Source: a virus (Duplodnaviria > Caudoviricetes). Taken from it: a stretch of DNA of 61,746 nucleotides. The stretch is taken from IMG/VR virus record IMGVR_UViG_3300036783_000190, positions 1-61,746 of that record. One strand, given 5' to 3'. Below the pieces are notes generated by a model. It worked only from the letters and a program-made list of their open reading frames with translations. It had not been told where the DNA came from and did no database searches. This document shows, piece by piece, positions 1-61,096 of this stretch (the first letter of the stretch is position 1; the number at the start of each line of letters is the position of its first letter). The position numbers and the translations under genes were made by a program.

Positions 1-511
1 CGTATTTCTGAGCACCTTTTAATGATCTTTCTTGTGTTTGTAAAATAACCATTACATAGTCACTAGCGACTAATGCACTGTCTGCAAATTTATTTAATTG
101 TGGTGGCACATCGATAAAAATGTAATCATAATTTTCTTTGATTGCACTTAATTGTTTTGCGAAATATGTATCTTGTGAGAAGTCATCCTCAAAATTTCTG
201 AACAAGAACTTTTCGTATGTTTGTAAATCTTCGTAAGAAGGAAGTAAGTCTAAGTTAGGCAGTACATTAATTAGCGCACTCTGTAAGTTTGCATCTATAA
301 GTGACATAGCTAATGTTCTTTTGAATTCTGGCTCGATTGAATATATTTTTTTCATTGTGTTAAATAGTAAATCAGTCGCATTTGCTTGGGGATCTAAATC
401 TACTAATAGAGTTTTCTTTCCTTGTTTTGCGAATGTATAAGCTAACATTACAGCGTTGGTAGTTTTTCCAACTCCACCTTTGAAGTTCCCAGTTGTGATA
501 ACCTTGCACAT
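1..511 (-). CDS. parA: ParA/Soj-family partition ATPase, 5' part (runs off window start); copy 1
   Basis: Near-identical to the 5' part of ORF 51743-52570 (deviant Walker A KGGVGKTT); ATG at 511. Confidence 0.9.
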   Translation of the reverse strand, partial: MCKVITTGNFKGGVGKTTNAVMLAYTFAKQGKKTLLVDLDPQANATDLLFNTMKKIYSIEPEFKRTLAMSLIDANLQSALINVLPNLDLLPSYEDLQTYEKFLFRNFEDDFSQDTYFAKQLSAIKENYDYIFIDVPPQLNKFADSALVASDYVMVILQTQERSLKGAQKY

Positions 512-874: not shown

Positions 875-903
875 TTTACAAAGAAAAAAGCTTGTTGTAA
901 CGT
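875..903 (+). promoter_or_regulatory. SigA-type promoter for long leader/primer RNA
   Basis: TTTACA-17nt-TAACGT, conserved in copy 2. Confidence 0.55.
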
Positions 904-989
904 AGTACACAACAAGCATCATTCTACAAAACAAAACATAATTTGATATTTTACATAAACGAAGTTCGATAAAACAATTGAATATGAAC

Positions 990-1169
990 ACAAAACAAAA
1001 AGCCACTCCCGTATGCTAACGGCTACTAACCATTAGCGGGAATGACTCTTCTAGCTAGTGTACCACCACTTGGCTAGAAATGAACTGTATTAACCCACAG
1101 TGTTGACGTTTAAGTAGTGTACCACCACTAACCTTAAACAACTATGCCTTTTCACGAGGCTTCTTTGAT
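990..1169 (-). ncRNA. Antisense (countertranscript) RNA, ~180 nt, three stem-loops
   Basis: Minus-strand TTGATA(1204-1199)-17-TAAAAT(1181-1176); ends in hairpin + U-run at ~1001-990; sense-strand loops CTACTAA and GTACCACCAC x2. Confidence 0.7.
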
Positions 1170-1253
1170 ATACCCATTTTATCTATTGTTTGGATAAATA
1201 TCAACTAGTAAATACTAGTTTTGATTATTTTATAGTCCAAAAGATATATAACG

Positions 1254-1328
1254 GGCATCTCTAATCCTAGAAGTCTTGTGAATGTACAGGTCATTTAGGA
1301 ATTGGAGATGCCTTTTTGTTTTTTGTTC
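1254..1328 (+). terminator. Intrinsic terminator/attenuator
   Basis: GGCATCTCTAATCCTA...TAGGAATTGGAGATGCC followed by TTTTTGTTTTTTG; 3' side complementary to 986-1005. Confidence 0.75.
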
Positions 1329-1885
1329 GCGTGGAATTGCCTGATACCACGTAAATAAAAACTGATAAGCCGTAATTCCGTGCTTCTATATAGAGGGAAC
1401 GTGTTACGGCGTGGCTAGCTGTTGGTCGTGCAGGGGGTACAGAGTATGCGCCTACAAAAACAGCACCCCTCGCTGGAATCCTGTTCTTCTGGTGAGGGTG
1501 GGCGAGAACTTGCCCAGGGACGATTCTCTAAAAGGTTCGGGTGGTTATCGTTAGCATCACGGTGCTAGGGAGTACATTCAGTTTGTCGTGTAGGGACGAT
1601 ATTACAAGGACAAGCCATAGAAAAAGGATGTATGCGGTGAAGATCGCTGAGTGAACAGGGTCTATACATACGGAACACTGACTAAGCAAGGCATGAACCA
1701 AAGACACTTATCCATTCTATTCTGATTGATTACTTTTTTGTAGTCTTTCAGCACAGGGGATAACTCTGCCAACCAGCCGTTTTCCTAACTTCGCTGCGGC
1801 ATGATAAAAACCCTCAAAACCTTCAGTCAAGGATAATTACGAAGATATGATGAAAAATATGAGATTGTTTAAGACCTGGGGGAAG
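1329..1885 (+). ncRNA. Conserved GC-richer structured non-coding RNA downstream of attenuator (putative replication primer/origin)
   Basis: No ORF >=60 aa; many hairpins; conserved with 53395-53952 with pairing-preserving substitutions. Confidence 0.6.
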
Positions 1886-2160: not shown

Positions 2161-3075
2161 CTATATTTTGTTCCCTTTTACTTCATTTGCTTTTTTTGTT
2201 CTGGATTCTTCAATTTGTTCAGATTTACTTTTAATTTCATCGGTAATTGCTATCTTGATACTTCCTTGTGCTTTTTTATATTCTTGAATTAAAGAATTAA
2301 CATTCTGATTAAATGAAATTAAGCTGCCAGTTGGGGAAGTCATTTGTTCATTGAGCGCCGTTATAATACTATATATCTTTTTATATTCTTCATACACTTC
2401 TTTATATTCTTTTGGGTGTTCTTTTGAAGCCTCTGAAACTAGTTTTAATTGCTGTCCCATTGCCGTATGAAGTAAATCAGCATGTTTGATCATAGGTTCA
2501 GATTCCACTTTTTTAGAAACTAATTCCACATTAAAGTCTTTTCGATTAGTAATTGCTTCGGACCATGTAGTGGAATACCCAGATAAAACTAACGTTGAAA
2601 ACATTTCGAAGGAATCAATGTCATTGTAAAAGTTAGCTGCAGCCATTAAATATTCATTATCTTTCTTTCTCTGTTCGGCCGCTTCTTGATGTTCTCTTTC
2701 TATATTCCCGACTGCAAAACTAATTCCTGTAAGTATAGCGATCGCTGCAACAGACGTTGCGAATGAAACAGCTGATTTAATAATTAACTTTCTGGATTCT
2801 GTCTTTTTTATTTTTTTCACAATGCCGATAGATAGAAAAATTAAAGATGCGACAAATGCGATAATACTGAACCACGCTAAGGTTCCTCCTACCGCTTGAC
2901 CTAAAATATATCCAAATCCATATTCAGCATCGCCAAACATATTGAAACTATTATAGATTCCTCTTACAAAAAGTATTAAAAGTATTCCTATACTGCTTAA
3001 AATAAGCGTTTTATTAGATATTTTCATTTGCAGTCCTCCAAAATTTATATGTATTAATCTACAAAACAAAAGCAC
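2161..3075 (-). CDS. Membrane protein (3 N-terminal TM helices, helical C-terminal domain); start probably later (MKISNK)
   Basis: Hydrophobic segments in translation; GGAGG before internal ATG. Confidence 0.75.
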   Translation of the reverse strand: MLLFCRLIHINFGGLQMKISNKTLILSSIGILLILFVRGIYNSFNMFGDAEYGFGYILGQAVGGTLAWFSIIAFVASLIFLSIGIVKKIKKTESRKLIIKSAVSFATSVAAIAILTGISFAVGNIEREHQEAAEQRKKDNEYLMAAANFYNDIDSFEMFSTLVLSGYSTTWSEAITNRKDFNVELVSKKVESEPMIKHADLLHTAMGQQLKLVSEASKEHPKEYKEVYEEYKKIYSIITALNEQMTSPTGSLISFNQNVNSLIQEYKKAQGSIKIAITDEIKSKSEQIEESRTKKANEVKGNKI

Positions 3076-3112
3076 TCCTTCTTTCGAGCGCCATTGTCAC
3101 TTCTCTATTTTT

Positions 3113-3649
3113 TTATCCATTCTTGATTATTAAAGTACTTCTACACTTTAAACATTTAATTTTCTTGTGTTTGAATAACGTAATATTTTCTTTGTTGCAA
3201 GCTGGGCAAGTAACCGATTGTGGTACTTTAATATTTTTGTAACACAAGATGGCTATAAGCGCGAAGGGAATAGCAAACCAGAATTCCATTAGGACAAAGA
3301 AAGTAACAGATAATATACTCATAAGAATAAAAAATGGTTTCATTAATTTTCTAGCCCCATGATTCAATTTATTATCTTTTGTTTGAAAAGTATTTACTTC
3401 ATATGTACCAGGATAATATTGTTGTTGCTGATATTGAGAGTTTGATTGGGCAGCTTCTCTCTTTTTATTACTGATACGTTTTTCATAAGATAATCCAGTA
3501 CCAGGAATTGATGATGTAAGTCTAGTTCCAGATGGTCCTACACTAACACGAGCACCTTTTCCTCCTACGCTCATTCCAACGCCCTTGCTACTTAGATTAA
3601 CTTTAACTCCAGGAGCAACTTTGATACTTTTGCGAAATTTAAAGCCCAT
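3113..3649 (-). CDS. DUF4236-family protein with TM pair and C-terminal CxxC..CxxC zinc ribbon
   Basis: MGFKFRKSIKVAPGVKVNLS...PGTGLSY signature. Confidence 0.8.
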   Translation of the reverse strand: MGFKFRKSIKVAPGVKVNLSSKGVGMSVGGKGARVSVGPSGTRLTSSIPGTGLSYEKRISNKKREAAQSNSQYQQQQYYPGTYEVNTFQTKDNKLNHGARKLMKPFFILMSILSVTFFVLMEFWFAIPFALIAILCYKNIKVPQSVTCPACNKENITLFKHKKIKCLKCRSTLIIKNG

Positions 3650-4163
3650 AACATTGCACCCTTTCTTTAAAAAATGTAAGATTTCAACCCAAGCATAACA
3701 AAAACAGTTACATCTTTATTGTCGTATTTTGTCGAATGAAAATAAAAAAAGCCCTCAACAAATAGTTAAGGGCTGCGGTATACTCCCGCAATCTAGGAAG
3801 CTACGCTCCTAGCATGTGAATGATGGACCACTAAACGTTAGCAATAGCGGTTCATACTTGCGTATCGTAGCATATCTGTAACTAACATGTTATCAGCAAA
3901 ATAAGGGTCGTATTACAGTTAATGGATATGCAATATTGCATATTTCTAACGAACCGCATAAAATCAATACAAATAGTCATAATTTCACTAATTTCTGACT
4001 TTAGAAGAATATTTTACCGCTTTTATTGGAAAATGACGGGATGTAAGATATAGTCAAACGGACAGATAGTAAGCGTTTTACTTCGGTGTAAATGTAAAAA
4101 AGAGAGCGATTTGCCCTCTTACCACTGGTCAATGGAAAAGATTTCTTTTATGATGAAATCAAA

Positions 4164-4626: not shown

Positions 4627-5005
4627 TTTAGTGGTAAAATATTCATATGGGTTCTTAAAACGTCTAAATGCATAATTGCATATTCAAATTATTTTAATTC
4701 GAGAAACGTTGTTACAGAGCGGTTTCTCAACTTTCTCAATAATAGTCAGATAACTCCACGACTGAATTTTGGGAAATTTATGTTATTATGAATATAACTA
4801 AAAACGGACGTAAAAAAGACTCACAGCGTGTACTAAGGTGCAACGAACACCATAGTACCGCTTTCCCTAAAGCGCTAGGGAAAACACCTACTGCAAGTCT
4901 TACATAAATTATAACACATCTTTTGAATGTAGTGACGCGTTTTCCTGTAAAAGTTAAAATTTGGGTATAACGTGTCTTTTGTTCCGAAAAAAGGGGAGCA
5001 AAGTT

Positions 5006-6163
5006 ATGCAAAAAGTGTTAAGTAAAATATCTGATGATATGAATAGTAAGAATATCAATAGAACCCAACTCGTGAAGAGGATAGATATTGATGGAGCGAC
5101 ATTATCAAGATTCTTAAAAGGAAAACATCAACTCATTTTTAACAAATACGGAGTGATTTTAAAGGAAGTTTATCCCGATGATATTAATGCGAGAAGGAGT
5201 TTTTGTCGCGAATATTCCAGCGTCTTGAAGAGACAGGGTAATAAAAAGATAGCTGTATATTATTTACTAGCACACGGTGAATTAGACACTGTATCGGAGC
5301 TGTTAAATGAATCAACAATTAAACATGATTGGGAAACGGTATGCAGATTAATATATTTGCGATACAAAGGTGATTTATCTGGAGATAGCTTATTAAAAGT
5401 TTATAAAGAAAAAGTAGAGGGTATTAAGTCAAAAAATGTTGAATTTGAGATTCTCAAGGGTATAGTTCTTCTTCATATTAGGTATGACCAGAAAAACTAT
5501 AAGTCGATGATTCGACTTTCTGAGGAATTACATGAGAAGGTCGAAGAATTAGAAGACGATTATGCTAAGGCCTTTTTAAAATTTAAAATACAAGAAGCTA
5601 CTATTTATGGATTGTTAACATGTAATGAAATCCAAAAACTAAGAAGTATATGCCATGGAATAATCAATGATGATAACTCAGACATGTTATTCCCTATCTT
5701 TAAAGCAACAGCGTATGGTGTACTAGGAGAATCGTATATTTTTACGGATTATCACAAATCGTTAGGTTATTTAAACTCTGCTACTAGCATTATAGTAAAT
5801 GGTCCTGGCAATCAAATGATGAAGCGGAAAAATATGATATTGAATACGGTCGACTTCTTGAAGATACATTGGAAGGTAGATCTGAACGATATTGAACCTA
5901 AAGATGAAGTTGAAAAGGCTTATTTAGAAATACAAAAAGGCAATGCAAAAAAAGCAATAAGTATTTTAGAAGAGGTATTGAAAACTAAAGGGAAGCTAGG
6001 TGCTTTTGGCTTAACTTATCTAGGAATAGCGAAGGGGAATGACCCACAAATATTAAGCGATGCTTTGGATTTATTCGAGCGATCTTCCGATATTTTTTAT
6101 TCGTATTTGGCGAAGAAAAACCTAGGCATAATGTCCCAAAAATGCTATAATTTAGTTGGGTGA
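5006..6163 (+). CDS. aimR: AimR-family arbitrium receptor (N-terminal HTH, TPR-like helical C-terminus)
   Basis: 385 aa from ATG 5006 after AAGGGGAG; HTH DGATLSRFLKG; followed directly by a secreted peptide gene and the repressor. Confidence 0.85.
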   Translation: MQKVLSKISDDMNSKNINRTQLVKRIDIDGATLSRFLKGKHQLIFNKYGVILKEVYPDDINARRSFCREYSSVLKRQGNKKIAVYYLLAHGELDTVSELLNESTIKHDWETVCRLIYLRYKGDLSGDSLLKVYKEKVEGIKSKNVEFEILKGIVLLHIRYDQKNYKSMIRLSEELHEKVEELEDDYAKAFLKFKIQEATIYGLLTCNEIQKLRSICHGIINDDNSDMLFPIFKATAYGVLGESYIFTDYHKSLGYLNSATSIIVNGPGNQMMKRKNMILNTVDFLKIHWKVDLNDIEPKDEVEKAYLEIQKGNAKKAISILEEVLKTKGKLGAFGLTYLGIAKGNDPQILSDALDLFERSSDIFYSYLAKKNLGIMSQKCYNLVG

Positions 6164-6169
6164 TGCTAA

Positions 6170-6319
6170 ATGAAAAAAGTACTATCGCTAATCACAAGCG
6201 TAGCGTTAGCTGGCGGTTTTTTATTCGCTCCTGCTGACAACAAAGAGCAACCGAAACAAGTTGCTAAAGAACCACAAAATACAATTATGTTTATGTCTGA
6301 TCCTGGGACAGGAATTTAA
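6170..6319 (+). CDS. aimP: AimP arbitrium pro-peptide MKKVLSLITSVALAGGFLFAPADNKEQPKQVAKEPQNTIMFMSDPGTGI
   Basis: Hand-translated; signal peptide plus C-terminal xSDPG motif typical of B. cereus-group arbitrium peptides. Confidence 0.85.
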   Translation: MKKVLSLITSVALAGGFLFAPADNKEQPKQVAKEPQNTIMFMSDPGTGI

Positions 6320-9235: not shown

Positions 9236-9372
9236 TGGATAAACAGCAACGTGATGAATACGAACAAAAGAAACTCGTGTGGATCATAAAGGATTTAAGA
9301 GCTAGAGAGATACATAACAGCGCAGATAAGGTTGAGGAAATGCATAAGGAGTTTATCACTCTAGCTAAATAG
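9235..9372 (+). CDS. 45-aa hypothetical phage protein
   Basis: TGATG coupling; MDKQQRDEYEQKKLVWIIKDLRA... Confidence 0.6.
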   Translation: MDKQQRDEYEQKKLVWIIKDLRAREIHNSADKVEEMHKEFITLAK

Positions 9373-12299: not shown

Positions 12300-13091
12300 G
12301 TGAGTAATTACAACACGATACGTACAATCATTTCTCAAATAAGTGGACAAGAAAACATAGTTGTTGTACCAAAACTGTTCGTTAGGTTAACAGGAGATCT
12401 CACAACAGCAATCCTTTTGAATCAAATCGTATTTTATAGCGATAAATCAAAAAGAACTGATGGTTATTTCTATAAATCGCATAAAGAGTGGGAAGAAGAA
12501 ATTTGTTTAACAAAACGGCAGGTTAGTTATTCTACAGCAAAATTAAAAGAAATGGGCCTTGTAGAAACTAAGCTGATGAAAGCGAATGGAGCACCTACTC
12601 TTCACTATAAATTGGATTATGACAAATTGGTGCAATGGATAGTAACAAATTGTAACAATGGAAAATCACAAAATGTAACTATTGATTCTAACAAAATGTC
12701 ACTTTCTTTAACAGAGAATACTACAGAGAATACAACAAAGAAAAAGACTTCTTGTCACAAGTTTTCAACTTCTGACCTGGAGAATGCTCAATTGTTATTC
12801 AAATTAATGTTACAAAACAATCCATCAGCAAAAGAACCTAACTTAGATAAATGGGCAAATGACTTTCGTTTAATGAGGGAGCGTGACAATAGAACGGATG
12901 AACAAATTAAGTACCTTATCAATTGGTCACAGAATGATGAGTTTTGGAGAGCTAACATTCTTTCTCCATCAAAATTAAGAAAGCAATTCGACACTCTAAT
13001 TGCAAAGATTAAGAGTGAAAGAGAGAAGAAAAAGCCAAAAGCAACTAAAGGTAAAAAAGAATTAAGAGAGGAGGACTTTGACCTTGAATAA
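12300..13091 (+). CDS. Phage replication initiator (N-terminal wHTH, lambda-O-like C-terminus)
   Basis: W..NILSPSKLRKQFD C-terminal motif; precedes loader and helicase. Confidence 0.8.
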   Translation: MSNYNTIRTIISQISGQENIVVVPKLFVRLTGDLTTAILLNQIVFYSDKSKRTDGYFYKSHKEWEEEICLTKRQVSYSTAKLKEMGLVETKLMKANGAPTLHYKLDYDKLVQWIVTNCNNGKSQNVTIDSNKMSLSLTENTTENTTKKKTSCHKFSTSDLENAQLLFKLMLQNNPSAKEPNLDKWANDFRLMRERDNRTDEQIKYLINWSQNDEFWRANILSPSKLRKQFDTLIAKIKSEREKKKPKATKGKKELREEDFDLE

Positions 13092-18260: not shown

Positions 18261-19094
18261 GTGCGACACGTTTCCTCATAAGTGTGCAAACACGAAATAG
18301 GAGGGTTATCAACTTGATAACAACAACTTATTGACTGAAAGTAGGAATGAAAGCCGTCAGGTTGAGCTGAAACTACTTATCTGATACTCCTACATGCAAG
18401 GCGTGATAGTAGTCACAAATTGTATGAAGCTAGGTGAAGTCGACTGAACAAAACCTAAGTGAGAAATCATATGGTAATGGATAGGTCGGGGTGCTACAAA
18501 ATATCTAAGGTGAGAATGTCCTAACGGACTGGCAAACTTGCGAATGTACGGGTCTAAACGTTTAATATATCAGAAATGTATATGTCGTTAATGACGACGT
18601 TATCTACCGAAAAGTAAGATTAAATAGTATGAAATTCGGAACATCTAACGATGAGGATGTAAAGATAACAGGCTTAAAGCAAGCACCTAAGGATGTATGT
18701 ATAGCTAGGTCAATCGGAACGTGGTAAGCAAGAAACTGTCATCAACGTCTACTAACGGACAGATGCATATAAGGTTCTAACGAACCGAAATTGCTTCATT
18801 CTTGTGAAGGTGGGGACATAGTACCGAAGAAGCATGTAATAAATGTGGAGGGATAGTCCCTAGTCTTGTTCTTTGAAAACTAAATCAATTAGATGTAACT
18901 CACAGGATCGAGTAAGATGATGTGACCTTTCGTAAGAAAGGGGAATTAATACGTTGGTGAGTACAACATTGTTTGTAATCTAGTTGCTTTAGTATAGAAG
19001 AATAAGATGGGGCGCTGTATGCGATGAAAGTCGCACGTACAGTGTTAAGCGGGGGAAAAGATGGAGATAACTTCAAAGTCTTACCTATCGCAAC
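18261..19094 (+). mobile_element. ORF-less group II intron (~834 nt, bacterial class B-like)
   Basis: 5' GTGCGACACG; D5 GGCGCTGTATGCGAT-GAAA-GTCGCACGTACAGTGTT; D6 ending CCTATCGCAAC; EBS1 AAATAG (~18622) matches 5' exon CTATTT; short D4 with SD remnant and no RT ORF. Confidence 0.9.
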
Positions 19095-48365: not shown

Positions 48366-49532
48366 ATGGAGATTTTAAAAAAGTGGCTTCATAAACAAAG
48401 TTTAAAGAATCAACTTATAGAGGTATTTGGAAAAGCAGGTTTATATGTGGACCATCAAACAAGAGGTGGTAAAGTACCAATTTATCCAAAAATACATGAC
48501 ATTTCCTCCACACCAGAAAAGGTTCGATATATATTTACAATTCCGAATGGTTTGGATCCTAAGACCATTGAAAAGAAATGGTTTTGCTTTCAACAAATAT
48601 TAGGACGTAACGTTGCCATTCAAGGCGATATTAAACGGTTTGTACTTAATGTATTTCATTCAGATGCAGGGTTAAAACAATACAACTACAGTTATAAGAA
48701 ATGGCAGCCATTACTAAAACAACATCGTCTTCCTGTTGTAGTAGGTCGGGACCAATTCGGAAATATGATTGTGTACGATATGGTTGAAGCCAATACACCA
48801 CATTTATTAATCGCAGGAGAAACAGGTAGTGGTAAAAGTAGTATGGTACGTGTTGTTCTGTCCACACTCATTCAACACATGTCTCCTGATAAATTACATT
48901 TGTATCTGGGCGACTTGAAAAATTCCGAATTTCATTTCTTGAGAAGGGTTAAACACGTAAAAGAAGTGTGTATGGAAGAAATCGAAATGAAGATAATGTT
49001 GCAGAAAGTGTGGAAGGAAATACGAGAAAGAAGAAAATTAATGGAAAAGTATGAAGTGGATCATATTGATGAATACAACAAAACGAATCCTGACAATCAG
49101 AAACCATATATCTTACTTGCGATTGATGAAGTGGCCATGTTACAAGATGAAAAAGAATGTATGTCTACAATAGAAAAGATATCGGCAGTCGGCAGGGTGC
49201 TTGGTGTCTTCCTCATGCTTTCCATGCAACGTCCTGATGCAAAAGTATTAGATGGCAAGTTAAAGTTGAATATGACCGTCAGAATGGGTTTTAAATGCGA
49301 TAGTACAATCAACAGTAATATCACGGGTACACCTGGATCAGAACGCTTGGAGAAATCGGGCCAAATGATTCTAAAACTGAATGGATTAAAGAAAGTGCAA
49401 GCTCCTTATTTAGAATTAAGCAAAGCGAAACAAATTGTTGAGTCGTATCGCATACCAAAAGAGGATATGACAATTCAGAATCCTCCACAAGAAGAGATTC
49501 CATTGTTCGGGGTGTTAGAAGATGAGGAATAG
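48366..49532 (+). CDS. FtsK/SpoIIIE-family ATPase
   Basis: PHLLIAGETGSGKS, DLK, AIDEV, MQRP. Confidence 0.92.
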   Translation: MEILKKWLHKQSLKNQLIEVFGKAGLYVDHQTRGGKVPIYPKIHDISSTPEKVRYIFTIPNGLDPKTIEKKWFCFQQILGRNVAIQGDIKRFVLNVFHSDAGLKQYNYSYKKWQPLLKQHRLPVVVGRDQFGNMIVYDMVEANTPHLLIAGETGSGKSSMVRVVLSTLIQHMSPDKLHLYLGDLKNSEFHFLRRVKHVKEVCMEEIEMKIMLQKVWKEIRERRKLMEKYEVDHIDEYNKTNPDNQKPYILLAIDEVAMLQDEKECMSTIEKISAVGRVLGVFLMLSMQRPDAKVLDGKLKLNMTVRMGFKCDSTINSNITGTPGSERLEKSGQMILKLNGLKKVQAPYLELSKAKQIVESYRIPKEDMTIQNPPQEEIPLFGVLEDEE

Positions 49533-50130
49533 AGATAAAGCGATACTAAGTGATTTGAACCGTTTTAGATGTATGTCTCGCGATGATATTATAGATTTGC
49601 ATTTTAAAGGATTAAATAACGCGGTTACTTGTTGTAATACGGTGATGAAACGATTACGAAGAGATGGCCATGTGGATGCCAATATCTCGCAGCAGCCATA
49701 TATTTATTTCCCCTAACCTAGTACACTACGAAAAACTAGCCAAAAGATTCCTCACTTCCTCGGCATTGTAGACATATATAAACAGCTTATCCATTATGAA
49801 AAACCGAAACTATTTAAAGTGGAACCAAAGTACGGTAAAGAATTCATGGAACCCGATGCATTTACAATCTGGCGTAGATCTCCATTCTTCATTGAGGTTC
49901 AAAAGTCAGTTTACAGTAAAAAGATTATGCAAGATAAAATCAACAGGTATGAGTTATATTTCCACAGTCAGGAATGGCATAACGAATCGTGGCAGCCAAA
50001 AGATAATAAATTCTTCCCGTCAATCCTCATCATTACTGATAAACAGTATGATATTAACTCTTCTAATTTACGTATCTTCCAAGCTTCTTCAATTAGCAGT
50101 TTCATGGATAGTCTTGCGACAAAAATATAG
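49522..50130 (+). pseudogene. Replication-relaxation (Replic_Relax) family gene with in-frame TAA at 49714-49716
   Basis: ORFs 49522 and 49819 share a frame, which reads on (PSTLRKTSQKIPHFL..EPDAF..FIEVQ) past the stop. Confidence 0.75.
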
Positions 50131-51390: not shown

Positions 51391-51750
51391 CTATTCTCGA
51401 CTTTTCTTCGATTCAAGCACTTGTTTTACAGCGTTTTTTACTAACTTTTGTTTTGGTGTAGGTAATGAAGCAACTTTTTCTTCGATTAACATATTTATTA
51501 CTTCATAGATTTTCATATCTTCAATTGTAGCAAGTGTTGATATTGCTGTGTGCGTTTCTAATGAGACACGGAAAGATTTCGGTAACTCTTTCGTAGTTAG
51601 TTTTCTCTTTGGTTTTTCAAAGAGCTTATCATCATCAGGGAAACTACGTTCTTGATTTTCTTTACTTTCGGGTGTGAAAGTTACTGATCCTTCAGTTTTC
51701 TTTCTTCTCATACCAAGTTGTTCTTTGTCTATATTCAATTTGTTATCCAT
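51391..51750 (-). CDS. Putative centromere-binding protein (type Ib, RHH-like)
   Basis: Overlaps parA stop; KSFRVSLETH..IYEVINMLI. Confidence 0.7.
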   Translation of the reverse strand: MDNKLNIDKEQLGMRRKKTEGSVTFTPESKENQERSFPDDDKLFEKPKRKLTTKELPKSFRVSLETHTAISTLATIEDMKIYEVINMLIEEKVASLPTPKQKLVKNAVKQVLESKKSRE

Positions 51751-52570
51751 TTACTGTTGTCATTCCTTCCAAAATCTCGATTCTCTTTTCGACTTCACCT
51801 GCAATATTTTGGTATACAGTATGAACGTTTTTATCATGAACATCTTTTAGATTATAAGTGATTCCTGTTCTATCAAATCTCTTTAAGCGTGCCATCTGTT
51901 TAATGATATTACTGAACACATTAGCTTTGCCAAAAATCTCTTCAGCTTCTTGAAGGATATCTTTATCAATTTCATTACCGTTTTGCATTAGTACAGGTAA
52001 AGCCCCAATAATTTCTAATGGTAAATTGTAATCATCTGCTAACGAGAATACATGTTCAACGTATTTCTGAGCACCTTTTAATGATCTTTCTTGTGTTTGT
52101 AAAATAACCATTACATAGTCACTAGCGACTAATGCACTGTCTGCAAATTTATTTAATTGTGGTGGCACATCGATAAAAATGTAATCGTAATTTCCTTTGA
52201 TTGCACTTAATTGTTTTGCGAAATATGTATCCTGTGAGAAGTCATCCTCAAAATTTCTGAAAAGGAATTTTTCATATGTTTGTAAATCCTCGTAAGAAGG
52301 AAGTAAGTCTAAGTTAGGCAGTACATTAATTAGCGCACTCTGCAAGTTTGCATCTATAAGTGACATAGCTAATGTTCTTTTGAATTCTGGTTCGATTGAA
52401 TATATTTTTTTCATTGTGTTAAATAGTAAATCAGTCGCATTTGCTTGTGGATCTAAATCTACTAATAAAGTTTTCTTTCCTTGTTTCGCGAATGTATAAG
52501 CCAACATTACAGCATTGGTAGTTTTTCCAACTCCACCTTTGAAGTTCCCAGTTGTGATAACTTTGCACAT
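51743..52570 (-). CDS. parA: ParA/Soj-family ATPase, copy 2
   Basis: NFKGGVGKTT, VDLDPQAN, IFIDVPP. Confidence 0.96.
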   Translation of the reverse strand: MCKVITTGNFKGGVGKTTNAVMLAYTFAKQGKKTLLVDLDPQANATDLLFNTMKKIYSIEPEFKRTLAMSLIDANLQSALINVLPNLDLLPSYEDLQTYEKFLFRNFEDDFSQDTYFAKQLSAIKGNYDYIFIDVPPQLNKFADSALVASDYVMVILQTQERSLKGAQKYVEHVFSLADDYNLPLEIIGALPVLMQNGNEIDKDILQEAEEIFGKANVFSNIIKQMARLKRFDRTGITYNLKDVHDKNVHTVYQNIAGEVEKRIEILEGMTTVNG

Positions 52571-52934
52571 TTTCCGTCACCTCGTAAAAAAAAGTTTTTT
52601 TATACTTTTATAAATTTATAATTTGATTTTATAACACAACAAACCAACGGTAAAGTATAAATTTATAATTTTATACTTTTATAAAAATTTTATAATTAAT
52701 CTGTAAATAGATGATAGTTTTTAAAACCTATTTTCAAAATGGTATATTATCAAGCTATATTAGCGTATTTTTTATAAAAATATACTTTTATACTTTTATA
52801 AAATTATAAAAGTATAAAAAAAGTATCATTCTAATTTCGGAAAACTAGTTTTTTATAAAAGTATAAAATTATAAAAGTATAAAAATGAAAATGGTTTTTT
52901 ATATAGAGGGAAATGTAACAGGCTTATAGGGGTA

Positions 52935-53952
52935 TTTACAAACAAAAAAGCTTGTTGTAACGTAGTACACAACAAGCATCATTATACAAAACAAAACATA
53001 TTTTGATAAAACAAATCTACATAAATAGATCGAGCAAAACAATTGAATATGAACACAAAACAAAAAAGCCACTCCCATATGCTATTGGCTACCAACCGAT
53101 AACGGGAATGACTTTTCTAGCTAGTGTACCACCACTTGGCTAGAATGAACTGTATTAACCCACAGTGTTTACGTTTAAGTAGTGTACCATCACTAACCTT
53201 AAACAACTATGCCTTTTCACGAGGCTTCTTTGATATACCCATTTTATCTATTGTTTGGATAAATATCAACTAGTAAATACTAGTTTTGATTATTTTGTAG
53301 TCCAAAAGATATATACCGGGCATCTCTAAACCTAGAAGTCTTGTGAATGTACAGGCCATTTAGGAATTTGGGATGCCTTTTTTGTTTTTTGTTCGCGTGG
53401 AATTGCCTGATACCACGTTAATAAAAACTGATAAGCCGTAATTCCGTGCTTCTATTATAGAGGGAACGTGTTACGGCGTGGCTAGCTGTTGGTCGTGCAG
53501 GGGGTACAGAGTATGCCCCTACAAAAACAGCACCCCTCATTGGAATCCTGTTCTTCTGGTGAGGGTGGGCGAGAACTTGCCCAGGGACGATTCTCTAAAA
53601 GGTTCGGGAGGTTATCGTTAGCATTACGGTGCTAGGGAGTACATTCAGTTTGTCGTGTAGGGACGATATTACAAGGACAAGCCATAGAAAAAGGATGTAT
53701 GCGATGAAGATCGCTGAGTGAACAGGGTCTATACATACGGATACCTTATAAGTGACCGCATGGCGAAACAAAGACGCTTATCCATCTATTTTGATCGATT
53801 ACTTTCTTGTAGTCGTTCAAAGTAGGGGATAAATCTGCCTTCCAGCCGTGTTCCATAATCGTTCCCACATGATAAAAACCCTCAAAACCTTCAGTCAACA
53901 CTTAATTCTAAGAAAAGCAGAAAAATATAGGATTGTTTAAGAGCTGGGGGAA
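52935..53952 (+). ncRNA. Second copy of replicon RNA region (leader, antisense RNA ~53055-53234 on minus strand, attenuator 53319-53394, structured RNA)
   Basis: Homologous to 875-1885 with the same promoters and hairpins. Confidence 0.65.
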
Positions 53953-54607
53953 CTATTTACCTGAGTAAGAAGAAAGGGTAGGAGTACCACCGTTAACTTT
54001 ACTAGAGGATAAGGGAAATAGAGAATTATTGAGATATCACAGTTAGTCTGTTATATAGATGATGGAATTTAGTAGTTCACCTTTAGTTAAGGTACTTTTT
54101 GGGTAACGACAGTAATGAATATAAGGTTTAAATTAGATATATGAAGTTAATAAGCAGGAGGATTATTGTTTGGTTTTAAATTGTGTTTTATCAATCAGAT
54201 ATAGTACGTGAAATTTATAGGATATTATAAAAAATATCCTATCTGTTTGCTAAAATCTCAATTAAATTTGTACAATATGTGTGTAAAGAAGAATGATGAA
54301 AAGGAGGGGTAAAAACAAAGTATAAGCTTGTATGATTGGTTATGTTAGTCATTATAAAAATTTCTTTGGAGATGTATTTTTTGATGATTAAGAGCTATTT
54401 GTTTTGTATGTTGAACTTGTTAAGAATGTAGAAGCATGATGTACGTATGTGGTTATTATATATATTCGGTATACCCAGGGATATTTAGGTACTTAACATT
54501 TAGTTAAGGTAAGAAGAGATCATTTTTTATTTATTTATTTCTGCTATACTAAATAAATAAGCCCATCGTATTGGCGTACGAAAGGCTTGAAGGGTGGTGA
54601 ATACATA

Positions 54608-54694: not shown

Positions 54695-55278
54695 TTGTGT
54701 TAAAAAGCTTTTCAGTATTGGCGTACTGAGAGGCTTTTTTATTATACACATGATGTGTTTTTATAATACTACTATGGTAATAATTATACCAGACGCACAT
54801 AAAAAATCAAAGAGCACATAATGGATATAGTGTATAAAAGAAAAGACACCCTAAGGTGCCTTCCTCCGACTTGAACCACGTTTATTTAGTATAAAACCTA
54901 TCCGTATTATCCCTTTGTTATAAGTGTAAACACATCCTATAAAACAGAATCGTCTATATACACCAGATTGTTAGTTCACAAAGTACAAGAGATTTGAGAT
55001 CAGTATTAGAGTGACGCCACACCTTTTATAACGATCGATATGTTACGCCTTTCAAAAGAATCTGCTTTATAGAATGTATCCACAATTTATATTTCACTAC
55101 ATGTAATATTTATTTGGTGTATTTTTTAGAACTATGTATAATTGCATAAAGTTTATAAAAAAATGAGAGTATAATTTGGTATTGTGTAATAAAGATAAGG
55201 CCCACCTACGGAAATAGGTGGGCTTTTTAACGCATAAAGAAAAGACATCCATATAAGAATGTCTTTTCCAATAGTTTT

Positions 55279-55395: not shown

Positions 55396-55532
55396 AATAG
55401 ATCCTCCTTTAATAAGAGGAGAAAACAAGGGTGTACGCATGTTTTTTAACGGATTTAATATACTTTATGGTTTTACGAATTAATTGAGCAGGTCCTTTAA
55501 GAAATAAAGAAAAGAAACCCTAAGGTGCCTTT

Positions 55533-55742
55533 CTACTCTGTAACAAATTTAAATATATAGTACATAAAAAATAACAAAGATAGACTTGCTAATCTACCTG
55601 CAATCGATTCTTTCATAAATTTCATAAGTAGCACTTTAACAAGTAATGCTAAGGATAACGGTATAAACAGTATCATAGCAAGTTTGATCGCTAAGTCGTT
55701 TATAGTGGGGTTAAACGCTTCAAAATTAATTATGATATCCAC
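55533..55742 (-). CDS. Small 2-TM membrane protein
   Basis: Hydrophobic; GAAAGG RBS. Confidence 0.7.
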   Translation of the reverse strand: MDIIINFEAFNPTINDLAIKLAMILFIPLSLALLVKVLLMKFMKESIAGRLASLSLLFFMYYIFKFVTE

Positions 55743-56096
55743 TTACCTTTCTTTCATCTTTTTATTTTTATAATACAATTTATATTGTTTTGTCCACTAA
55801 AAAAGACACCCTAAGGTGCCTTCCTCCGACTTGAACCACTTTACTTTTAATAATATGTATTGGACTCCCATCCAAATATTATTTTATCATGTTAAGTAAT
55901 ATTCGGGTACCGCCAGCATTTTTGAAGAAAAACACGCTAAGCAAAAAAATACAATAAGCCGCCCATGTGCTATTTCTTTATGTATCTAATCGTGACGATA
56001 ACAGTGTAGAAATTTATGATATTTCTACTTCTCAAACTCCCGTAAGTCTAGGAGAATTTAATGTAGGAAACTGTCGGAATGGATATAAATAATATA

Positions 56097-59118: not shown

Positions 59119-59449
59119 TTCATCATAGAATAATATAAATTTTAAAGGCATCTATTAAACATAGATGCCTTTTTTCATAAAGAAAAGACACCCTAAGGTG
59201 CCTTCCTCCGACTTGAACCACTTTACTTTTAATAATATGTATTGGACTCCCATCCAAATAATATTTTACCATGTTAAGTTATATTGTTCATTGAGAAATA
59301 TTACTCAAATTTAACTCTATTAATCTATGAAATTCAAGCAATTTAATGTAAAATTTATATAGATAGTTTTAAAGAAATAATAAAGTTGTTAAAAAACATC
59401 AGTCATTTTATTCTACAATCGGGCTAAATTATAGAATGAAGGCTGTACT

Positions 59450-60378: not shown

Positions 60379-61096
60379 TTTAATCTCTCCTTTGAGTAGG
60401 AGGGGAAATTCAAGGTCACTCATGTATTTTAATGGATTCAATTTACTTTATGTTTTTACGGATTAATTGAGCAGGTCCTAAAAAAAAGACGCCATAAGGC
60501 GTCCCCCACAATTGGGTAGATAAGGTTTAGTTTTCCACTTTAAAGAAATTAGGTATCACACCTTGAGAGTATATCATAATATCTATTAAATTTAATATTC
60601 TATGCATTATTACATAAAAGAAAAGACACGCTAAGGTGCCTTCCTCTCATTTGATAATCACTTATGTCCTCGGTTTGTATCATATATTACGATGCTACAG
60701 GGGTCTATTAATGTTGATGGATACCTAGGTTATTTTAATAAATGCCCAGTGAAATCGGAAAATATTATTGTTTTTTTATGTTGTTATATACAATTATAGA
60801 AAAACTTGTAATCGCTATTACTATAAGCATAGTTCTTTCAACAATAGAATTATAATTAGTTAAATAATCTATCAGTAAATATAACGGGAAAAGTAAAATG
60901 AAAAATATAATTTGTTTTTTTGTAAACATTTTGAAAATGCCCCCCTGTTAAATTGTATAATTTTATATTATACTAAATTTAGTATATATAACATAATTAT
61001 ACCTTAATATCTATAAAAAAGAAAAAATATATATAATACCCACTATTGTAAAAATTTTCTATTACATGTTAATATTAACTATGTAGTTATCAATCT

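Follow-up and report, generated by a model that had tools for sequence, protein, structure and literature searches.

A conserved non-coding RNA module with a probable role in plasmid replication in a Bacillus cereus-group phage-plasmid

The IMG/VR virus record IMGVR_UViG_3300036783_000190 (61,746 nucleotides, analysed in full as positions 1–61,746 and called the window below) encodes a temperate siphovirus-like phage together with plasmid genes. Near its left end, beside parA, lies a conserved non-coding module that extends from about 931 to about 1910. From left to right, the module consists of (i) a leader that is the target of a predicted antisense RNA; (ii) a terminator hairpin, the attenuator; (iii) a folded core RNA of about 450 nt; and (iv) a short 3′ block. 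A second, diverged copy of the whole module (plus strand, about 52920–53960; 91% identity) lies near the right end of the window, preceded by an intact parB-parA and repeats. An initial annotation of the sequence had described the locus as an RNA-only replicon without a replication gene. Here, we describe the architecture of the module, its relatives, and the readings of its function, among which a role in plasmid-state replication is probable.

The module is widespread and mostly unnoticed. Positions 860–2020 (1161 bases) matched 233 plasmids in PLSDB, 230 of them from Bacillus and 76 with at least 80% query coverage, on plasmids of 7–260 kb; the matched region was unannotated in 38 of the 40 PLSDB matches listed, and only 1 phage record matched the module. 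A search with a 21-nt core pattern gave 17 loci in species genomes, including Peribacillus and Paenibacillus, and 78 in viral contigs. One hit, on a Bathyarchaeota contig of a metagenome-assembled genome (L018), fits the 21-nt pattern without blastn homology and was dropped as a chance match. In total, 94 further module loci were available besides the PLSDB plasmids. For the alignment, 101 copies were reduced to 81 of full length and then to 73 representatives below 97% identity. Conservation is 0.93–0.99 in the core and falls to a minimum of 0.72–0.77 over 1051–1110.

Antisense RNA, attenuator and alternative pairings

On the minus strand, the leader carries a promoter (1204–1176) composed of a −35 hexamer TTGATA (1204–1199), a 17-nt spacer, and a −10 hexamer TAAAAT (1181–1176), which together match the consensus at 10 of 12 positions. 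This counter-promoter, already pointed out in the initial annotation, is well kept: the pattern TTGNNN-16..18-TANNNT stands in the corresponding alignment position in 73 of the 75 relatives, and the promoter columns are invariant in 7 of 7 divergent plasmids. The 2 misses, loci L025 and L091, have a window-type core behind a non-homologous upstream control region from which the antisense cassette is absent, which hints that the core and control modules recombine independently. The predicted antisense RNA (minus strand, 994–1169), whose ends are placed from the promoter and terminator positions, would be about 170 nt long. It folds into five hairpins (−63.6 kcal/mol, z = −5.16), and at its 3′ end the stem-loop I hairpin is followed by UUUUUGUU; the leader contains a convergent antisense promoter, and the RNA predicted from it has a terminator of its own. 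An antisense RNA of about 180 nt over three stem-loops had been proposed; a folded RNA of nearly that length is indeed predicted, with five hairpins instead of three.

The antisense target on the plus strand (1003–1160) comprises stem-loop I (1003–1046, loop CUACUAA), stem-loop II (1050–1078, loop UACCAC), a middle hairpin, stem-loop III (1108–1139, loop UACCAC), and stem-loop IV (1146–1160). The likeness of these loops to the CTACYAA loops of ColE1, noted earlier, applies to stem-loop I; the loops of stem-loops II and III differ from it, and no Rfam match to RNAI was obtained. Within the module, conservation is lowest over this target, and in stem-loop I 6 of 9 pairs are changed on both sides. 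Variable antisense target loops of this kind are as expected for incompatibility determinants. When distant sequences were included, RNAalifold gave a poor or empty consensus for stem-loops II–IV and the attenuator owing to indels, and duplex tests and single folds of each sequence were used instead; L025 and L091 were left out of these pairing tests of the control region.

The attenuator (plus strand, 1253–1327) is a long hairpin (1253–1313; −33.4 kcal/mol, z = −5.8) followed by a U-tract (1314–1327, UUUUUGUUUUUUG), in agreement with the terminator that had been placed at 1254–1328. In the plasmid BTB_15p of Bacillus thuringiensis (Bt407), the attenuator is conserved with a changed stem sequence. 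Two segments upstream can pair with the attenuator. The first, the A-rich 5′ segment together with the 5′ arm of stem-loop I (985–1010), is complementary to 1300–1328; read on the minus strand, this segment supplies the U-tract for the terminator of the antisense RNA. Between 986–1005 and the attenuator 3′ arm with its U-tract, 18 of 20 pairs form by hand count, and RNAduplex gave −24.4 kcal/mol for the window. Over 50 distinct combinations, the mean energy was −24.0 for a sequence with its own partner, −22.4 for cross pairings, and −10.7 for shuffled partners, and 0 of 2000 permutations reached the own mean. Compensatory changes are found in L020 (GAATAG... with ...CTATTC) and in small plasmids (GAACGGAA with TTCCGTTC). 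In copy 2 of the window, the A-run and the T-run are each one base longer, as had been observed before. The segment 986–1005 had been proposed as the antiterminator. The pairing is real and covaries, but the assignment is incomplete: when the whole leader is folded to minimum energy, the 986–1005 helix coexists with the terminator hairpin, and therefore this helix alone would make a poor antiterminator.

The second segment (plus strand, 1146–1176), which we designate the preemptor, pairs with 1262–1290, the 5′ arm and top of the attenuator, with energies of −24.8 to −27.4 kcal/mol. The predicted antisense RNA covers it exactly with its 5′ end. With the own partner, the mean energy over 48 distinct combinations was −24.0, against −13.1 for shuffled partners, and 0 of 2000 permutations reached it; the attenuator segments of L015 and L016 were incompletely extracted and gave weak values that were still counted. 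With altered sequences, the pairing recurs in five divergent subfamilies, represented by BTB_15p (−25.1), NJ-W (−27.4), pBAslCI14 (−22.8), pBFC_1 (−20.0), and p8_2 (−19.0). The segment 1146–1176 is the better antiterminator candidate. An intrinsic terminator and an upstream pairing incompatible with it are thus both found in the leader, and the antisense RNA would cover that pairing, as judged from computed pairings with covariation. A preemptor beneath an antisense RNA is the known control logic of pT181 and Inc18 plasmids.

The start of the sense transcript is less clear. A sense promoter had been placed at 875–903; this position overlaps the hairpin (890–917) of a predicted minus-strand terminator (880–917; −13.6 kcal/mol, z = −3.98), in which the hairpin is followed by the T-run TTTTTTCTTT. 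The element looks like a terminator whose effect would be to keep leftward transcription out of the par operon. The best sense-promoter candidate, which is uncertain, lies at 943–971 on the plus strand, with the −35 hexamer TTGATA (943–948), a 17-nt spacer, and a weak −10 hexamer TCGATA (966–971); from this unsettled candidate, the sense transcript would start near 978–985. Most relatives retain this −35 hexamer, but the hexamer 17 nt further on varies (TAGATC in 16, TCGATA in 14, and TCATGA in 13 of 75). At the aligned place, the small-plasmid relatives have TTGATT-17-TAAAAT (2 cases by scan) or TTGCTT-17-TAAAAT (alignment read by eye).

Structured core RNA and 3′ block

The region downstream of the attenuator folds into a core RNA (plus strand, 1330–1778) with 18 helices, as predicted by RNAalifold from the 73 sequences over 1325–1851 (107 pairs). 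The helices include a hairpin at 1330–1351, the helices at 1418–1464 and 1467–1498, an invariant hairpin at 1549–1570, a domain at 1572–1647, and the helix at 1709–1762; a long-range closure joins 1501–1503 and 1539–1545 with 1768–1778. Of the 7752 alignment cells in this structure, 99.4% are paired. Both sides are changed in 41 of the 107 pairs. Shuffling the columns 500 times gave 8.7 ± 2.2 such pairs and never the observed number, and sliding the partners by 1–3 columns gave 5–11; the covariation across homologues whose absence the initial annotation had named as a refutation is thus present, well above shuffles. The two pairing-preserving changes quoted there both fall within the core structure: columns 519/551 hold UA in 62 and CG in 7 sequences (CUGA/UCAG versus UUGA/UCAA), and columns 425/432 hold GU in 53, AU in 12, and GC in 8 (GCGGU/GCGAU against AUCGC). 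There are 1144 G-U cells and 12 A-C cells, and a minus-strand reading would pair 84.8%. Because the G-U cells far outnumber the A-C cells, the plus strand is the folding RNA. The core has a GC content of 48–54% with a positive GC skew, compared with 15–35% in its surroundings.

A protein-coding explanation of this conservation was not borne out. No replication gene follows the attenuator, and no ORF (open reading frame) is conserved in the module: the seven window ORFs of 36–59 codons between 1411 and 1830 are intact in 1–51 of the 73 relatives (the best in 51, the remaining ones in 1–44), and the longest ORF per relative (35–116 codons) shifts from place to place. A translated small ORF, which the earlier account had named as a competing explanation, could thus not account for the conservation, and its description of a conserved structured RNA in place of a rep ORF holds. 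The Rfam search that it proposed returned no family for the module at the gathering threshold, the sole matches in the window being group II intron domains at 18322–19094; at E ≤ 10 over 500–2200, with ColE1 RNAI included, only chance-level rows of microRNA, CRISPR, and small nucleolar RNA families were obtained. A tRNA scan found nothing in the window. Read in this way, the architecture of a real, conserved RNA-based control-and-effector module had been recognized largely correctly.

Downstream of the core, the 3′ block (plus strand, 1796–1835; CATGATAAAAACC-TCAAAACC-..AGTCAAG) is kept in both window-type and BTB_15p-type elements. We propose that it may be the site of the RNA-to-DNA switch, that is, the origin proper. 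A minus-strand promoter within it (TTGACT-18-TATCAT) was considered and set aside, its −10 hexamer being absent from the Peribacillus copies in the alignment read by eye. The short motif ACTAAGATAG (plus strand, 1891–1900) marks the 3′ limit of conservation.

RNA-seq contigs from four studies cover homologues of the module at about 90–95% identity. Three of them span 875–1912 (X2), 875–1963 (X4), and 702–1592 (X12); such RNA-library contigs carry no start, end, or strand information. In run X15, a contig over 788–1270 has a depth of 35.5 and a contig over 1272–1989 a depth of 387.5, with the step inside the attenuator hairpin. The step suggests a stable RNA over the core and calls for one of two explanations, processing in which a stable core RNA persists or initiation from a second promoter. 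One candidate for the latter, immediately ahead of the attenuator on the plus strand, was judged by eye to be unconserved.

Relatives and a probable role in replication

The neighbours and relatives of the module connect it to plasmid replication. A block at 875–968 is common to pXO2-type plasmids, and in pXO2 of strain CDC 684 it stands in the interval from parA to repS, about 440 bp ahead of the latter gene. By its position, the RNA module thus occupies the slot that is held by the replication gene repS in pXO2. The control cassette is also homologous to that of BTB_15p (71–86% identity in blastn pieces, with invariant columns). The homology lies in a 1.3-kb non-coding gap of BTB_15p and covers the sense-promoter position, the A-rich 5′ end, stem-loop I, the antisense promoter, the attenuator, and a CGTGG hairpin; the 3′ block (...AAAACC..AGTCAAG) and the ACTAAGATAG motif are common to both as well. 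Both types are non-coding stretches of about 1.2 kb that differ in their central 350–450 nt, which are not detectably homologous. They also differ in setting: the window type stands beside parAB on plasmids and phage-plasmids of 33–260 kb and has a weak sense −10 hexamer, whereas the BTB_15p type is found mostly on plasmids of 7–15 kb and has a canonical one. Elements of the BTB_15p type match 101 plasmids, 12 of them at 80% coverage or more, and most are small.

BTB_15p carries Tn4430-type genes and IS231A. Its BalI sites at 1270 and 4142 delimit a fragment of 2872 bp, and its HpaI site at 3912 gives one of 2642 bp that starts at 1270; this stretch contains a single SpeI site, at 1583, which falls in the conserved antisense −35 region. 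Both fragments begin after the DnaD-like ORF (101–1141) and exclude it; besides the module, they contain a 58-codon ORF, a 134-codon ORF with a PBECR2 nuclease fold, and a truncated ORF. The work of Lereclus and Arantes in 1992 reportedly described pHT1030 as a 15-kb B. thuringiensis plasmid with a minimal replicon of about 1 kb that encodes no protein, and a 2.9-kb BalI fragment and a 2.6-kb HpaI-BalI fragment, carrying replication and stability functions, are said to have given rise to pHT3101 and pHT304/315/370. The PBECR2 ORF (3061–3465 in BTB_15p, L010; 3894–4298 in L008) might, speculatively, represent the addiction or stability function of pHT1030 (perhaps spbA). BTB_15p is probably pHT1030/ori1030; this identification rests on the agreement of the restriction map with the fragment sizes reported for pHT1030, which is a fit and not a proof. 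The module would then be a variant, with a different core, of a replicon kind that was functionally described in 1992, and the new hybrid class that had been proposed for it would not stand, its control cassette and 3′ block being homologous to the non-coding region of BTB_15p. In the vector literature, ori1030 is the Bacillus origin of pGP380, pBS0E, and pLIKE-rep, with 15–25 copies per cell, and one SpeI site was removed from pGP380 in the building of pBS0E (PMC5678133). The single SpeI site in the BTB_15p fragment agrees with this removal.

The module also occurs on p33 (33 kb) and pE33L54 (53.5 kb), two complete plasmids for which no initiator is annotated; both have FtsK-like, Replic_Relax, DUF3967, and ParA genes. 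On small plasmids, it lies in an unannotated gap of 1.3–1.8 kb (pBFC_1, 7.3 kb; p8_2, 7.6 kb; NJ-W unnamed37, 7.7 kb; pBAslCI14, 14.2 kb; BTB_15p, 15.2 kb). A Paenibacillus contig of 4632 nt (L023) has a 77-nt terminal overlap and thus forms a 4555-bp circle that carries the module; its ORFs of at least 100 codons are three, namely a resolvase, an HTH_3 protein, and a 189-residue protein without a family match. Among the protein families tested, none is common to all module carriers.

We think it probable, with moderate confidence, that the stretch at about 930–1910 and its second copy are the plasmid-state replication module of a B. cereus-group phage-plasmid and belong to a non-coding replicon family founded probably by ori1030. 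The anatomy fits countertranscript-driven attenuation placed before a conserved structured non-coding RNA instead of a rep gene. In the mechanism that we envisage, (i) the weak sense promoter near 943–971 would start a plus-strand RNA; (ii) the constitutive antisense RNA of about 170 nt would meet the nascent leader through the loops of stem-loops I–III and cover the preemptor (1146–1176); (iii) with the preemptor covered, the attenuator (1253–1313) and its U-tract would form and transcription would stop; (iv) when the antisense RNA is scarce, that is, at low copy number, the preemptor would pair with the 5′ arm of the attenuator, and transcription would continue through the folded, G-rich core (1330–1778, about 450 nt) and the 3′ block (1796–1835); and (v) the read-through RNA would be the rate-limiting product for initiation, most likely as a persistent RNA-DNA hybrid that is processed into a primer for the DNA polymerase I of the host. 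Replication would then be unidirectional, rightward, and ColE1-like, with the control logic of pT181 and Inc18 plasmids. As a weak hint in this direction, the sense-RNA strand shows a net excess of G in all 3 replicons compared.

Besides ori1030, the module resembles two known systems, and differs from each. With pT181 and the Inc18 plasmids pIP501 and pAMbeta1, it shares a convergent promoter in the leader for an antisense RNA with several hairpins, as well as a preemptor beneath that RNA and an intrinsic terminator. By contrast, no rep gene follows the attenuator here, and the attenuated product would be a structured non-coding RNA; sharing of sequence was noted only for the 94-nt block with pXO2 upstream of repS. 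With RNA II and RNA I of ColE1, it shares a non-coding RNA of about 500–850 nt that is presumed to be rate-limiting, antisense control, a G-rich transcript, and an A-run in the 3′ block. It differs in that control is predicted to act through premature termination and not through refolding of the preprimer, in its Gram-positive hosts, and in that neither RNAI nor another Rfam family matches it.

Several observations weigh against this reading. The sense promoter is insecurely placed, with a poor and variable −10 hexamer. RNA-library contigs may contain DNA carry-over, and the depth in X15 is 11 times higher downstream of 1271, the opposite of what simple attenuation would give. The GC skew is confounded by gene orientation. 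An nhmmer profile of the core gave no match to BTB_15p, NJ-W, pXO2, or L018; because the central cores have no detectable homology, what is known of ori1030 reaches the window solely via the shared ends. Moreover, candidate initiator proteins are at hand. Replic_Relax (labelled "replication initiation protein" in PHROG; 3.4e-57) and a protein of the DUF3967/MerR type are encoded in the window, p33, pE33L54, and pd; an ORF of 346 codons that matches DnaD-like and replication-initiation families of PHROG (8e-12) lies directly upstream of the module in BTB_15p; a related DnaD-like ORF of 422 codons lies directly upstream in pBAslCI14 (3e-9); an HTH_36/DnaD_N-like ORF of 164 codons lies directly downstream in pBFC_1 (7e-7); and the phage in the window has an O-like initiator and DnaB.

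These proteins give rise to the most serious alternative, in which the module is the origin and its copy control but needs a protein in trans, be it Replic_Relax, the DUF3967/MerR protein, the DnaD-like ORF of the small plasmids, or the O-like initiator of the phage. The read-through RNA would then serve to prime the origin or to activate it, a role that transcription plays in the pAMbeta1 family. The joint presence of Replic_Relax and DUF3967 genes in the four elements named above speaks for such a dependence, as do DUF3967 homologues in 51 of 94 loci despite short flanks, the DnaD-like ORFs that abut the module in BTB_15p, pBAslCI14, and pBFC_1, and the Rep-dependent replicon that pXO2 holds in the same slot. 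However, tblastn gave no match to Replic_Relax, DnaD-like, or DUF3967 proteins in L007, L009, L011, and L023, the last of which, at 4555 bp, has just its resolvase, HTH_3 protein, and protein without a family match, and the BalI and HpaI fragments of BTB_15p, which fit the ori1030 clones as reported, leave out the DnaD-like ORF. We regard a dependence on an element-encoded protein as rather unlikely.

An improbable alternative is that the module is not a replicon but a self-regulated non-coding RNA of mobile elements that acts in cis or trans in partition, lysogeny, exclusion, or incompatibility, or as the partner of a plasmid-borne Hfq. Its strong structure without a known family, the hfq genes near the module in pd, pE33L54, and p33, and the one run (X15) that suggests abundant RNA over 1272–1989 would suit such a role. 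Yet the combination of antisense control and attenuation is the signature of copy-number control, several carriers would be left without a recognisable replicon, Hfq was found in 0 of the 94 loci, and the occupation of the repS position, like the link with ori1030, points to replication. That the module is merely a long regulated 5′ leader of a downstream protein gene is highly improbable, for although co-directional ORFs follow it in some plasmids (hfq in pd, 117 codons in pE33L54, 161 codons in p33, and the 164-codon HTH_36 ORF in pBFC_1), these are mutually unrelated, the plus strand of the window has no ORF of at least 60 codons at 1900–2160, the tested families follow the module in none of 72 loci, and conservation stops at about 1910.

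If the replication reading is correct, the consequences reach beyond this element. Many plasmids and phage-plasmids of the B. cereus group are typed by their partition genes only, with a 1-kb stretch left unannotated; the module would give them a replicon type and, in its variable antisense loops, an incompatibility determinant. It would also explain the working parts of ori1030, the origin in common Bacillus vectors, and it would make initiator-free, ColE1-like theta replication in Gram-positive bacteria testable. The literature searched contains no account of the mechanism, RNA anatomy, breadth, or phage-plasmid role of ori1030, and the words "non-coding" and "replicon" are both absent from a survey of plasmid prophages (PMC8026635). 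A broader proposal is put forward tentatively, its chance falling somewhat short of even: the module may belong to a modular superfamily of protein-free RNA replicons in Bacillus and related Firmicutes, in which a conserved antisense/attenuator cassette and 3′ origin block flank interchangeable, non-homologous structured RNA effector domains of 350–450 nt. The domain in the window would be a second, undescribed type; the RNAs would recruit, unaided, host machinery (R-loop, DNA polymerase I, PriA/DnaD), and the module would serve as the lysogenic maintenance origin of many B. cereus-group phage-plasmids.

The duplicated block and the surrounding genes

The 5′ part of a parA gene, cut by the window edge, occupies 2–511 on the minus strand (ORF list). 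It is followed at 540–830 by AT-rich iterated repeats in 8-nt phase of the TATAAAAGTATAAA type (family D1, 18 copies in the window; GC content 15–20%), which are probably the partition centromere and the par promoter region. The position beside parA given in the initial annotation is general: a ParA gene stands divergently upstream of the module, at most 2 kb away, in 61 of the 63 loci whose flanks are long enough; L015 and the small plasmid L023 are the two exceptions. On the other side, the neighbour varies, and none of the tested protein families occurs within 1.5 kb downstream of the module in 72 loci.

The parA-repeats-module block of positions 1–2000 recurs at 52060–54000 in direct orientation, 52.06 kb apart, with 91–99% identity by segment, and the repeat families D2–D5 and D9–D11 link the 2 module copies. 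The full parA copy lies at 51743–52570 (Pfam AAA_31/CbiA/ParA) and is preceded by an ORF for a 119-residue adaptor (51391–51750). The 2 copies of the block are distinct and therefore are not a wrap-around of a circle. They also have different sequels: copy 1 is followed by a membrane protein, DUF4236, and arbitrium genes, and copy 2 by AIPR, an ORF with a zeta-toxin domain, and others. The duplication looks like a phage-plasmid that was cointegrated with, or assembled onto, a second plasmid with a related replicon. The two module copies differ most in the loop and upper stem of stem-loop I, and these differences might make them compatible.

The plasmid genes of the window are FtsK, Replic_Relax (49522–50124), the MerR and DUF3967 protein, and the ORF of 119 codons followed by ParA. 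Its phage genes include the AimR arbitrium receptor, Rha, ERF, an O-like/DnaD-like initiator (12300–13091), and the DnaB helicase. The element had been described as having no integrase and no plasmid Rep. Pfam Phage_integrase, Resolvase, RepA_N, and Rep_3 indeed gave zero matches in the window, and this part of the description stands for the integrase and for the RepA_N and Rep_3 families, but Replic_Relax, the DUF3967/MerR protein, and the O-like initiator are encoded.

Further features were recorded along the window and its relatives. Plasmid-borne hfq genes lie at 9247–9513 in L002, 8203–8358 in L001, and 19948–20136 in L107; the hfq gene of pd is directly downstream of the module, and those of pE33L54 and p33 are near it. 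An AimR-like receptor (Pfam AimR, 3.4e-35) is encoded at 4961–6319 of the window and is followed by an ORF of 49 codons with a signal-like N-terminus; the locus is probably an arbitrium communication system. The Rfam matches to group II intron domains D1–D4 (118.9 bits) and D5–D6 (57.1 bits), about 770 nt apart, would make 18322–19094 a group II intron of small size, apparently without an ORF, in the early region of the phage. Finally, a 51-nt repeat with a terminator-like hairpin (GACACCCTAAGGTGCC) occurs in 6 copies, at 2027–2077, 54837–54887, 55506–55556, 55797–55847, 59179–59229, and 60617–60667, and RNA-library contigs of other strains break and rejoin at this repeat.

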